A stretch of 64,000 nt of DNA, from positions 26,466 to 90,465 of the forward strand of contig JBKCUA010000014.1 of the NCBI GenBank assembly GCA_046318675.1, in the 5' to 3' direction. The stretch's first letter is position 1; each line of letters opens with the position of its first letter. This document shows, piece after piece, positions 31,003 through 52,209 of the stretch. The notes beneath the pieces were generated by a model. It was given only the letters and a program-made list of their open reading frames with translations. It did no database searches and had not been told where the DNA came from. The position numbers and the translations under genes were made by a program. The DNA comes from Holosporales bacterium (GTDB lineage Bacteria > Pseudomonadota > Alphaproteobacteria > JAJTHO01).

Positions 31003-33546
31003 ATGGGGCGTATGACGGTTACATTGGATAACAGCAGCAAGGTTAGTGGCTCTTTCGATGCTACTTTGTACACATCAACAGATTCAACGTATGTCTTGGA
31101 ATGGAATGGTAAATATTACCGCGTTGGCTCGGCGGGATCGTTAACTATTATAGATGATCCTGATAAAAGTAATTTAACAAAATCACCTAATTTTTCGAAC
31201 AGACTTGAGGTATATCAACAAAATAGTATGGTTTATTTTGTTGATCGTGAACAAATTTACAAAATCGAGGTTACGACCACAACAAACAATGGAACTCTGA
31301 ATACTGAGTCCAGTATCGTTGTAGTTCCCAGTAATTTGTCCCCAACCAACACCAGCAGTCTTAGCGGCGGCAGCGTTGATCCTCGTACGGTAACAGCAGA
31401 TTTAAATGGTGCCACAGTAACTGTTTATACCCCAACAACGCCGGCATTGGGAACGCAGAACAATAACACTATTTATTTAGCCACTAATAACAAAATTATT
31501 TATAGCTACAATACCGGAGACGACAGTATCGCTTATATTGGGACAAGCTTGCCAGCGGGCGTTGCTGTCACACAGGCTTTTCCGGGAACATCGTTTCAGG
31601 TTATTAGCAATACCGATGGCCGTCGTTATCTTTATGCCAATGGGACAGTGTATGAACCTGATTTCCAGAATGGCAGTCTTGTACTGGTACCAAAAACAAC
31701 AACCAATGGAACAAACGGAACATTAGGTGGAATTAGTATCTTGAACACTATAGGCGGCGGTTTAGGTGGGTTAGGTGGTTTAAACAGCACTGATCTGGGA
31801 GATACATTAAATAATCCTGTTACAAAAATTTTAACCGCAGCGGAGGTGGCACCTACAGAACTTAATGATATTCAAGATTATTTTCAGCTATTTAGCAGTA
31901 TTATCCTTGGCGCAGATGGAATCAGGGGATTATTCCTAGGCGATAATGACAAAGTTAGGACTATACCCAATCCTACTACGATAGGTACAATTGGCAGCTC
32001 CGGCAGTGACTCACTGACCCCGCCATCGCCTACTACTACAGAGGCATCCACTGGCGGCACCACAACAACCAAAGTAGAACAAGGAACAGGAATAGTACTA
32101 GTATCCCCCGAAGAATATGAAAAAATCCAAGCATCTAAGGGATCAAATGGTGCAAGCAGCACCCCCAGTATTGACCAAAACCTCACAGGGGCACCAGACC
32201 CAGTAGCCACAGCAACGCAAAAATCATCATCTCAAAAAACAAAAGATACCCCTGATGATAAGCCGTCTGCCACCAGCAATAAAGAACCAAAAAAGCAAAC
32301 CATCGCATCCGCGCCCGTAGAATCAACGCCGAAAGAAAAATCACAATCCATACCTACTAACCCCTCAACAAACAAAAAACCAGAACAGAGCAGCGATGGT
32401 GGTAATGGCACAGAAACCAATGTAAACAAAAATAAAAAAGGAATAGTCGATAAAGGAACGCTTGTTTTAGATATGAAAGATCGTGAAAACCCGCTCGAGG
32501 TGCATTTTACTCTTGATGGGAAAAAACTAATAGCCAACAAGTTTACAATCGAAAAAGGCAATATCGTTATTGATGCCGGAACAAAAGTCACCATTCCGCT
32601 TACCAAGCTTTCCATGGTTAACCTTGCCGCTCTTGGCGACAAATTGGAAGATAAATATATTGTTAAGCAAGGAGATCAACATTTCACCCTGACAAAACCA
32701 ACAAATGCCTTCAGTTCCTACAAACTGACCGCTACTGAATCAACACCGAAGCTTGTGGCCAACGAAAAAAGATTTGACATCGATGGAGATGGTAAAGCTG
32801 AAAATACCGATCCGATAAACTTGAAGTGGGCGATGAACCAAACCAGCACGGGCGGCGGGGGTACAGTAACCCCCAAGACCGAAAATCCTAAAAAAGAACA
32901 AAATCAAATAACCTCTATATACCGAGGCGGCACCAGCACGGGCGGCGGGGGTCATAATAAAAACGAAACATCTGCTACAGTAAACCCCAATACCAAAAAT
33001 CCTAAAAAAGAACAAAATCAAATAACTTCCATACACACAGGTTCTGTCCCAAACGGAAAGTATCACTGGGCATATATAGGGAATAAACTTAATTTAGTGT
33101 CTCCTGCAGGCAACCCTGTTGATTATTTAGTTGAAGGTGGGAAAATTTACGTCAGCGGCAAAGACAATCAGAGCAAACCTGTAGCTATAGAACTTACATC
33201 TTCAAATTATGATTGGAACATTCCTACGGGTGTACCCAAAGAGATACAACTAGCCGGTGGCGACAAAATAACATTAGATGACTGGAAAGTAGACACTGAA
33301 GAACTTAAAAAAAATGGTAAAAATTCAGGCGAGTTTGACGGCGATGCACGCCCAAGTTATACAGGCGTTCCCACCGGTATCACACAGAAGAACCTTCCCC
33401 CTGCTTCTGGTCCCATCACCGTTGCCTCCGCCGCCAATCTCACCAACGCCTTAGCTGGTAATCCCTTGGGAGGCAGCTCGGCTACTTCCCCATCCGGTGA
33501 ATCTTCCAACAGCGAAAATAGCCCTCAGCTTACTTCTATAACGTAA
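31003..33546 (+). CDS. Large Ser/Thr/Gly/Asn-rich hypothetical protein, probably secreted or surface-located
   Basis: 847 aa, AT-rich, no Cys, no Sec signal. Has FDIDGDG, an internal duplication and a C-terminal ASAANL motif shared with 51379..52209. Start may be 31012. Confidence 0.8.
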   Translation: MGRMTVTLDNSSKVSGSFDATLYTSTDSTYVLEWNGKYYRVGSAGSLTIIDDPDKSNLTKSPNFSNRLEVYQQNSMVYFVDREQIYKIEVTTTTNNGTLNTESSIVVVPSNLSPTNTSSLSGGSVDPRTVTADLNGATVTVYTPTTPALGTQNNNTIYLATNNKIIYSYNTGDDSIAYIGTSLPAGVAVTQAFPGTSFQVISNTDGRRYLYANGTVYEPDFQNGSLVLVPKTTTNGTNGTLGGISILNTIGGGLGGLGGLNSTDLGDTLNNPVTKILTAAEVAPTELNDIQDYFQLFSSIILGADGIRGLFLGDNDKVRTIPNPTTIGTIGSSGSDSLTPPSPTTTEASTGGTTTTKVEQGTGIVLVSPEEYEKIQASKGSNGASSTPSIDQNLTGAPDPVATATQKSSSQKTKDTPDDKPSATSNKEPKKQTIASAPVESTPKEKSQSIPTNPSTNKKPEQSSDGGNGTETNVNKNKKGIVDKGTLVLDMKDRENPLEVHFTLDGKKLIANKFTIEKGNIVIDAGTKVTIPLTKLSMVNLAALGDKLEDKYIVKQGDQHFTLTKPTNAFSSYKLTATESTPKLVANEKRFDIDGDGKAENTDPINLKWAMNQTSTGGGGTVTPKTENPKKEQNQITSIYRGGTSTGGGGHNKNETSATVNPNTKNPKKEQNQITSIHTGSVPNGKYHWAYIGNKLNLVSPAGNPVDYLVEGGKIYVSGKDNQSKPVAIELTSSNYDWNIPTGVPKEIQLAGGDKITLDDWKVDTEELKKNGKNSGEFDGDARPSYTGVPTGITQKNLPPASGPITVASAANLTNALAGNPLGGSSATSPSGESSNSENSPQLTSIT
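32842..33034 (+). repeat. Internal in-frame duplication (TSTGGGG...NPKKEQNQITSI, twice)
   Basis: ACCAGCACGGGCGGCGGGGGT and AAAATCCTAAAAAAGAACAAAATCAAATAAC each occur twice. Confidence 0.9.
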
Positions 33547-33585
33547 ACCTCGCCATCATCCCCATATAATGCTACATCCCTTGTT

Positions 33586-51366: not shown

Positions 51367-51378
51367 TGTTTGGGGGGA

Positions 51379-52209
51379 TTAGGTTGCTGCTGCTAGTAAA
51401 CCGCTATTGTCCGCAACAGGAGCACCGGACGCAGTAAGGGCTGATCCAGTAGCGAACGAACCATTCATAGCACTATTAAGGTTGGCGGCTGATGCTATCA
51501 TCGTAGGATCCATCTTAGAATCATCAAAGAGATTAGTATTCCAGTCTGGCCTATCACGATTATCAGTGTAGTACCCACCAACTTTTGTAGCCAAGTCAGT
51601 CTCTTTGCGAATCTGATTTGGTTGTAATACTACGGATGTCCCATTAATGGAAATAGAGCCGTCGTCATTAGTTGTGTAAGATATTTTCTGTCCTTGTCCT
51701 TCTTCTCCATACTTTCTAGTAAGTAAAATTATCGTCTTATCCTGTCGACCCCATTTGTATTCTGAACCATTTACATTGTAAACTTGGGCATCTGTTGTAT
51801 TTTGCTGAACCCGTGGGGTAGGATCAATAGAATTACGGAGAAACGGATTACCACTAGGTGTTGTTATTGGTAGTGTAGAGGAACTTGTATTTGGACGCAC
51901 TACAGGAGGAGGCTCTTTAAATGTCGTCGGAGAAGTTGTATCAAACCTTGGTGATGAAGAACCCAAAGTAAAAGTAGAAAATGGGCTGCTACTAGGTACT
52001 GTCGGGGGTGTAGTACTGCTCAATATATTCAGCCTACTGGTGGTACTGGGATCTGTAGTAGTTGGAGCACCCGTTAGATTTTGGAAAGCACTGGGTGCTA
52101 AACTATTTGATTCTGTAGTACCAAAAGAACTGCTCTTTGAACCACCACCACCAAACAACTTTTCTATTATTATTGGTATTACTGCTGCTACTACTACCTG
52201 CCACGCCAT
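51379..52209 (-). CDS. Ser/Thr/Pro-rich hypothetical protein, partial paralog of 31003..33546
   Basis: GGAGG RBS, 276 aa, AT-rich, shared C-terminal ASAANL...G...GS..T..SG...NS motif. Confidence 0.8.
   Translation of the reverse strand: MAWQVVVAAVIPIIIEKLFGGGGSKSSSFGTTESNSLAPSAFQNLTGAPTTTDPSTTSRLNILSSTTPPTVPSSSPFSTFTLGSSSPRFDTTSPTTFKEPPPVVRPNTSSSTLPITTPSGNPFLRNSIDPTPRVQQNTTDAQVYNVNGSEYKWGRQDKTIILLTRKYGEEGQGQKISYTTNDDGSISINGTSVVLQPNQIRKETDLATKVGGYYTDNRDRPDWNTNLFDDSKMDPTMIASAANLNSAMNGSFATGSALTASGAPVADNSGLLAAAT

Follow-up and report, generated by a model that had tools for sequence, protein, structure and literature searches.

Why do two unlinked and otherwise unrelated proteins end in nearly the same residues, and does this common ending serve to export them? 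The question is raised by P0001 and P0002, two cysteine-free orphan proteins encoded in a window of 64,000 nucleotides (the whole stretch of DNA analysed here, positions 26466-90465 of contig C14 in the Holosporales genome G000, which comprises 1.56 Mb in 38 contigs with 50.7% GC). The shared C-terminal tail is real and beyond chance. It recurs on a third protein of the genome, a protease, and judging from sequence it is most likely an export tag, whose few bearers would then probably be secreted.

A C-terminal tail on three protein families

Both open reading frames (ORFs) and both tails were found where an initial annotation of this DNA had placed them, and the similarity of the tails exceeds that of shuffled sequences (Smith-Waterman score of 58 against 30.8 ± 5.6, with 8 of 20,000 one-tail shuffles reaching 58). 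BLASTP of P0001 against P0002 gave 12/26 identities in the tail (E = 0.013). As the pair had been picked out of the whole window by the earlier reader, all tails of the genome were compared with each other, taking 45 C-terminal residues from each of 1,499 crude gene calls (1,122,751 pairs). A score of at least 58 was reached by 73 pairs; among the best 40 pairs and those scoring 54-62, nearly all represented paralogous domains or frames of repeat elements. Three genome-wide shuffles yielded no pair at 58 or above, their maxima being 57, 54 and 52, so the pair by itself is just barely significant genome-wide. A third tail, encoded on contig C13, scores 55 and 53 against those of P0001 and P0002, and mutual triangles at scores of at least 45 were absent from two genome-wide shuffles. 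A search of 29,525 six-frame ORFs for the exact word ASAANL returned the tails of P0001 and P0002 and nothing else, and a profile of the three tails, run on these ORFs, matches just those three (E-values from 1e-20 to 2e-16, the next match being at 0.38).

The third bearer is a 365-aa protein (C13:27015-28109, minus strand) with a Trypsin_2 protease domain at residues 33-185 (PF13365, 47 bits against a cut-off of 27.6), followed by a linker rich in Ser, Thr and Pro and then by the tail. The motifs TNNHV and GMSGGG are visible in it, the catalytic triad being read by eye, and its NCBIfam and Pfam matches are to protease models only. Its gene has no linked exporter, the neighbours being housekeeping genes and a generic ABC transporter.

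In the congeneric genome G001, each of the three bearers has a diverged homologue that carries the tail. The orthologue of P0001 (1025 aa, 32% identity) is syntenic, lying between mgtE and proB as P0001 does, and the P0002 homologue (358 aa) occupies a different locus: in G000 the P0002 gene is placed after prfA-ctaG, and in G001 a glycosyltransferase follows ctaG. Whole-protein searches with P0001 and P0002 in 40 related genomes had returned nothing at E ≤ 0.01, which is a false negative, since the G001 homologues were later revealed by the tail profile and by synteny. In G002 and G005 the neighbours of proB differ and no P0001-like gene is found there. One more tail match in G001 (L014) was rejected as the antisense frame of a gene resembling seryl-tRNA synthetase (named by eye). 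The G001 tail-protease gene is interrupted by a gene for a 361-aa transposase (L022, G001:C45:14000-19600, at 1778-4077), and the public protein P0004, from another strain, reads uninterrupted over the insertion point.

The tail forms the last 38-44 residues of all six proteins of G000 and G001 and of five strain variants, and is terminal in every bearer (three in G000, three in G001, and the variants P0004, P0010, P0012, P0013 and P0014). It opens with a conserved block, A-x-x-L-(T/N)-x-A-(L/M)-x-G, continues with a Ser/Thr-rich spacer that varies and spans 15-20 residues, and closes with an end block, (D/E/N)-N-x-x-L-(L/T)-A-x-T-(G). The P0001 orthologues, with 32% identity over their length, agree at 62% of positions in the first block, and the tail window NLTNALAGNPLGGSS ranks third in conservation among their 15-mers (10/15). 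The protease pair keeps 8/10 of the first and 6/8 of the last residues of the tail (hand count). Strain variants of the P0002 family have kept the hydrophobic N-terminus, GGGS and QNLTGAP and have a mosaic middle; even those with a swapped middle keep the tail, with small indels. At the DNA level the three tails differ at many synonymous sites, so their similarity is old and has been kept at the protein level, and does not reflect recent gene conversion. Lys and Arg are absent from the last 40 residues, a property of only 8/1,462 proteins of the genome, of which three are the tail proteins. Residues of the set LDAVTSIF make up 62%, 72% and 62% of the last 50 (genome mean 54 ± 8%), and those of the set KHPMWC, in which such signals are poor, 12-14% (genome 16 ± 6%). 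A second short motif (QNLTGAP, QDNLSGVP or ENITG) is common to all three families in non-terminal positions, and the 15-mer around the P0001 copy is the fourth most conserved between the orthologues (10/15).

Concerning the distribution of the tail, a six-frame profile search in 14 genomes of the order detected it in G000 and G001 only, with one weak match in G007 (E = 0.099). A profile of six tails was searched against 1.84 billion representative proteins (E ≤ 0.001) and gave nine matches, six of them from the three tail families; the other three were rejected as internal repeats of unrelated proteins (P0006, SH3-like; P0009 and P0011, TPR-like with 'GDRAANL'). Among these representatives the tail is confined to three families, all apparently of one genus. 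Against PDB sequences the best match of the profile was an unrelated flavoprotein (E = 0.31), and no known model of a C-terminal sorting or target domain in Pfam and NCBIfam matched (CTERM, the tail of the type IX secretion system, the target domain of the type I secretion system, T1SS). The initial annotation had envisaged a dispersed family. Its modular element on unrelated proteins stands, and matches in the tail families always fall at the extreme C-terminus of otherwise unrelated proteins; the wide spread does not stand, the hits being few and limited to three families, apparently of one genus.

The window genes and their CRP-type box

The features of the window and the genes preceded by the box are collected in Table 1. 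Neither P0001 nor P0002 has a Pfam or NCBIfam match. Composition counts bear out the initial description of both proteins as Cys-free and rich in Ser and Thr, of their genes as AT-rich (third-position GC of 0.37 and 0.29, the genome mean being 0.52), and of a DxDGDG-type motif in the larger one (DIDGDG), which is partly kept in the congeneric orthologue. The protease is Cys-free as well, and the three tail genes stand at percentiles 8.9, 0.7 and 10.8 of third-position GC. The weaker upstream similarity once suggested between the two proteins (NGKYHW and others) was not recovered: hhalign gave a probability of 1.1% and aligned other regions.

P0001 probably begins at its second ATG (31012) and would then have 844 aa, because GAGG stands 9 nt ahead of it and a public record (P0007) begins at M4; GAGG also stands immediately ahead of the first ATG. 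A look-up of P0001 in the ESM Atlas gave no usable match by features and template modelling scores of at most 0.21 by structure. The most conserved part of the protein is a Gly-rich stretch, GTLGGI..LNTIGGGLGGLGGLNSTDLGD.LNNPV (window 31700-31800, aa 236-273), with 13-14/15 residues identical across species; the G001 counterpart (L015) has additional GGLGG repeats. P0002 begins with an uncharged, hydrophobic N-terminus, followed by GGGGS, a region rich in Ser, Thr and Pro, a small beta-rich region and the tail. An adjoining ORF of 251 aa (52767-53522, minus strand), for which no family match was obtained, contains a long run rich in Pro and Val, and its C-terminal half resembles a coiled coil; this ORF and P0002 fill the stretch where G001 has the glycosyltransferase immediately 3' of ctaG.

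Table 1. Features of the window and genes preceded by the CRP-type box (positions are those of the window).
Feature	Position	Strand	Evidence or remark
P0001, Cys-free orphan protein, 847 aa	31003..33546	+	ORF and translation
P0001 C-terminal tail, last 40 aa	33424..33543	+	translation, alignment
P0001 QNLTGAP motif, Ser/Thr-rich linker	32176..32196	+	second high-scoring segment pair of BLASTP, 9/13 identities with P0002
CRP-type palindrome TAATGTGATGTAAATCACATTT, core 30967-30980	30963..30984	.	ends 22 bp before first ATG of P0001
P0002, Cys-free orphan protein, 276 aa	51379..52209	-	ORF and translation
P0002 C-terminal tail, last 38 aa	51382..51495	-	translation, alignment
P0002 QNLTGAP motif, aa 43-49	52063..52083	-	kept in P0012, P0013, P0014
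CRP-type palindrome AAAAGTGATTTAAATCACTTAT, core 52231-52244	52227..52248	.	ends 21 bp before P0002 start codon
HlyB-type T1SS ABC transporter, candidate exporter	2572..4806	+	TIGR01846, 1042.7 bits, cut-off 725.55
HlyD-family T1SS adaptor	4812..6254	+	TIGR01843, 375.5 bits, cut-off 208.65
VirB4-like ATPase of type IV secretion, rival candidate exporter	47045..49492	+	TIGR00929, 365.8 bits, below cut-off 643.1; PF03135
Box-preceded: P0001			window gene
Box-preceded: P0002			window gene
Box-preceded: RTX-like protein, 1540 aa
Box-preceded: VirB2-like cluster			TrbC, 40 bits in one of three paralogues
Box-preceded: VirB6-M23 fusion			TrbL, 45.3 bits; M23, 101.8 bits
Box-preceded: weaker VirB6-like protein			TrbL, 21.2 bits, below cut-off
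Box-preceded: two small orphans			one with weak Cadherin-like match below cut-off, other none

Both palindromes are 22-bp sites that fit the CRP consensus, TGTGA-N6-TCACA, and are predicted operators. The perfect palindrome GTGAT-N4-ATCAC occurs twice in the window, against 0.02 expected, and at 11 sites genome-wide, against none for the reversed pattern. For eight of the 11, a gene start follows at a distance of 21-150 bp (crude gene set); the remaining sites are at or inside a gene start (C17), farther off (C26) and, without an assigned gene, at a contig end. The P0002 box is the top-scoring site of the genome, the window genes carrying the best and the third-best. In G001 the P0001 box is kept at the same place with one base changed, and the P0002 homologue has a perfect box at the corresponding place. 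With a weight matrix built on 9/11 sites (C17 and C26 excluded), further matches came up at the virB10 start and at an orphan of 446 aa, and a weak one at the RTX gene described below; the protease gene has a degenerate palindrome only, below the score cut-off. One regulator of the CRP/FNR family is encoded (PF13545, 40.1 bits, over the cut-off), in a 252-aa ORF around G000 C32:15466-15606. By eye, -35/-10 hexamers overlap the box; a promoter scan returned no site before P0001, and before P0002 it found 3 against 3.1 expected. It is probable that the box defines a regulon of virB2-like and virB6-like genes, virB10, the gene of the RTX-like giant, two tail genes and several orphans. Sites of the form TGTGAT-N4-ATCACA in G000 are located at C2:92582, C3:28206, C6:68526, C28:50458, C32:54979, C33:21727, C33:130728, C13:106321 and C13:167587.

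Candidate exporters and possible roles of the tail

The candidates for the exporter are of ordinary kinds, namely two type I systems and a VirB/VirD4 type IV secretion system (T4SS) whose genes are scattered; no undescribed system is visible among them. The HlyB of the window has an N-terminal C39-like domain (PF03412, 66 bits) with DTG and NGDF at the Cys and His positions, where none of seven relatives has Cys or His either; where C39 peptidases have the catalytic Cys and His, Thr and Asp stand instead. TolC-like proteins (PF02321) are encoded on contigs C5 and C6, the latter in a second T1SS operon with an LssB-like ABC transporter that is devoid of the N-domain and with HlyD. The pair of HlyB and HlyD had been described as substrate-less, which is wrong: about 4 kb beyond the window lies the start (C14:94338) of an RTX gene that matches PF00353 with 69.9 bits and whose product is a likely substrate of the pair. 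This gene (C14:94338-96377) has repeated modules, is cut off by the contig end and probably resumes at C37:2-1372. A Cys-free RTX-like protein of 1540 aa is encoded on contig C2. Just one gene of the genome has at least two GGxGxD motifs, and it does not encode a tail protein. Across the order, HlyB-type domains and RTX proteins mostly co-occur, the exceptions being G002 and G007. An ORF of 192 aa with ABC ATPase matches (41158-41736, minus strand), directly 3' of mutS, may be a truncated or degenerate ABC protein.

Regarding type IV secretion, a virB9-B10-B11-virD4 cluster is present on C13 (PF02534 202.7 bits, TrbI 152.1, T2SSE 90.9, CagX 41.7). Genes for VirB2-like and VirB6-like proteins sit elsewhere, and the VirB4 of the window is part of this scattered set. 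Directly 3' of virD4, a 680-aa protein (L039, G000:C13:154000-170000, at 6621-8663, minus strand) has a protein-kinase match below the cut-off (29.3 bits) and could be a T4SS effector.

That the tail acts as an export tag independent of Sec is suggested by its terminal, conserved and modular character, by the lack of Cys in its bearers, by the absence of an evident Sec signal in two of the three (read by eye only), and by co-regulation with secretion genes and RTX-like proteins. The tail proposed at the outset proved modular, always terminal and kept in diverged homologues and strain variants; that it is a signal, and which machine reads it, we infer. The reading we tentatively prefer, possible though short of probable, is that of an uncleaved C-terminal export signal read by a type I system, which we favour slightly over type IV. 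Shuffling of gene ends would have moved the tail of about 40 residues onto three unrelated proteins. A tail protein would be kept unfolded in the cytoplasm, the ABC transporter would bind the AxxL(T/N)xA(L/M)xG block and the terminal NxxLLxAxTG block, and the chain would be threaded out C-terminus first. The exporter could be the C39-like HlyB and HlyD of the window with a TolC-like protein, or the ABC/HlyD/TolC-like operon on contig C6.

In favour of type I secretion we count the uncharged, hydroxylated composition of the tail, the acidic Cys-free character of the substrates (isoelectric point, pI, 5.2-5.4 for two of the tail proteins), the LDAVTSIF content and the resemblance of the tail ends to those of RTX-like proteins: RTX and RTX-like proteins of the genome and the order end in ...VVLAITG, ...ATLVG, ...VMFTG and ...LITFG, and the tails in LTASTG, LTAFTG, LVATG and LATVG. 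Proteases, moreover, are a class often exported by T1SSs. For comparison, a review, PMC10225607, describes acidic pI and few or no cysteines in T1SS substrates, and Table 2 of PMC3417381 gives an LDAVTSIF content of 66% for HlyA.

Several points weigh against this reading. That the tail ends look like those of RTX proteins was spotted post hoc, the LDAVTSIF enrichment is modest (ranks 24, 285 and 285 of 1,462), and lack of Cys is not rare, being found in 88/883 proteins of at least 250 aa. Absence of Cys was also considered as an export marker within the genome and rejected as too weak (signal-peptide heuristic positive in 24/88 against 163/795). The three tail proteins contain no RTX repeats (PF00353). 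RTX proteins are the usual cargo of HlyB-type transporters that have a C39-like domain, and the one in the window would already be served, because the genome has RTX proteins of its own. The shared box ties the tail genes to T4SS genes, and none was seen in the 250 bp upstream of hlyB. Furthermore, the protease is basic (pI 9.35), and the hydrophobic N-terminal segment of P0002 is unusual for a T1SS substrate. An amphipathic helix, which according to PMC10225607 is important for HlyA, was not detected in the tails: the hydrophobic moment was reached by 1,575, 1,425, 1,768, 457, 1,547 and 107 of 2,000 shuffles for the six tails. A complex prediction for the C39-like domain of HlyB (alignment of seven rows) and the tail (six rows) scored 0.09 and 0.11 against a mark of 0.32, which speaks neither for nor against type I secretion.

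The same box lends weight to a VirB/VirD4 type IV signal, in which VirD4 would bind the conserved block and the proteins would be delivered into a host cell. The boxes of the window genes rank so high genome-wide, and others stand ahead of the virB2-like pilin cluster, of two virB6-like genes and of virB10; T4SS effectors are known to be recognisable by being regulated together with the machine, an example being the PmrA regulon of Legionella and Coxiella. Signals for T4SSs are located at the C-terminus, virB9, virB10, virB11 and virD4 are all encoded along with virB4, and the XVIPCD module offers a precedent of a C-terminal module on unrelated effectors that binds the all-alpha domain of VirD4, as outlined in PMC8740702. 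This explanation is nevertheless unlikely in our estimation. The tails are devoid of Lys and Arg throughout the last 40 residues, whereas alphaproteobacterial VirB/VirD4 signals are positively charged (last ~20-30 residues); the regulon is not exclusive to T4SS genes, as it includes the RTX-like 1540-aa protein and a weak site at the RTX gene; the palindrome of the protease gene is degenerate; and effectors in the host cytosol would have no reason to avoid cysteine.

Apart from export signals, the tail may be a functional module that acts separately from or after export (a surface anchor, a processing or degradation site, or a motif binding host proteins), which we regard as distinctly unlikely. 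The non-terminal QNLTGAP-type motif speaks for it, since it indicates that a short linear motif can be common to these proteins without necessarily being an export signal, and, like disordered binding motifs, the tail accepts indels and swaps in its middle part; an AF2 model of P0002 from six sequences gave no usable fold (mean pLDDT 33). By contrast, the tail is strictly terminal in every bearer, its conserved last 6-8 residues suggest that a free C-terminus is recognised, a hydrophobic segment for anchoring is absent, and C-terminal sorting-signal models in NCBIfam and Pfam failed to match. Least probable of all, and improbable in its own right, is a functionless low-complexity remnant of a shared 3' gene segment. 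A tail rich in S, T, A, G and N, a pair score scarcely above the shuffle maxima (58 against 57) and a tiny family in one genus would agree with it, but three-way mutual similarity is absent from shuffles, both blocks are conserved across species well above the 32% background, the protein sequence is kept in spite of synonymous divergence of the DNA, and the tail is retained while adjacent domains are swapped.

Comparison with known secretion signals

What is new here is the CRP-type box ahead of both window genes and the third tail bearer, the exporters being of known kinds. Type I and most type IV C-terminal signals are hard to recognise because their sequence is not conserved; a homologous tail on three proteins would give a handle on secreted proteins of an uncultured organism and a small, defined peptide for probing exporter recognition. 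The CRP-type box in common with T4SS genes suggests a compact host-interaction regulon. The scope is narrow, covering three families in one genus. A broader proposal, somewhat doubtful at present, is that a genus-specific, conserved C-terminal translocation tag marks a set of effectors switched together with T4SS genes by a CRP-type regulator. If this is true, tail and box would be a direct read-out of secreted proteins in an organism that cannot be grown, and the tail would be the second case, after XVIPCD, of a homologous secretion tag shuffled between unrelated effectors.

Among T1SS signals, those of HlyA in E. coli and of TRP32, TRP47, TRP120 and Ank200 in Ehrlichia, as characterised in PMC3417381 and PMC10225607, are, as is proposed for the tail, uncleaved and located in the last ~50 residues. 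Such signals are LDAVTSIF-rich with a hydroxylated, weakly hydrophobic end; the tail ends in a like manner and has a modest LDAVTSIF enrichment. The Ehrlichia substrates and the tail bearers are alike acidic, poor in Cys, rich in Ser and Thr, and fast-evolving orphans of an intracellular alphaproteobacterium, and hlyB and hlyD are unlinked to the substrate genes in Ehrlichia as in G000. Known T1SS signals lack sequence conservation between substrates, whereas here one homologous tail occurs on three families. Unlike HlyA, the tail proteins have no RTX repeats or detectable amphipathic helix, and their export is predicted from sequence features.

A conserved domain that marks T1SS substrates of differing architecture exists in the C-terminal target domain of the VC_A0849 subclass (TIGRFAMs/NCBIfam). 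The tail is not a member of it, as searches with P0001, P0002 and the protease gave no match to any NCBIfam target or sorting model (E ≤ 0.001). With regard to regulation, the PmrA-box effector regulons of the Legionella and Coxiella Dot/Icm systems likewise place one cis-element ahead of both the machine and its candidate substrates; they differ in that the box here fits the CRP consensus, that the machine is VirB-type, and that the link comes from the genome sequence.

In its modular build the tail resembles XVIPCD of the X-Tfe effectors of bacteria-killing T4SSs, which is also a homologous C-terminal module on unrelated N-terminal enzyme domains. As described in PMC8740702, conserved motifs come first in XVIPCD and a low-complexity tail after them, and the machine that reads it is a class A T4SS including VirD4; the module is set apart by its ~120 residues, partly folded and Gln-rich, as against ~40 in the tail, which is Ser/Thr-rich and probably disordered. 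The two also differ in the bacterial orders in which they occur, a Pfam or NCBIfam sequence match between them is absent, and the regions upstream of the tail are unrelated.

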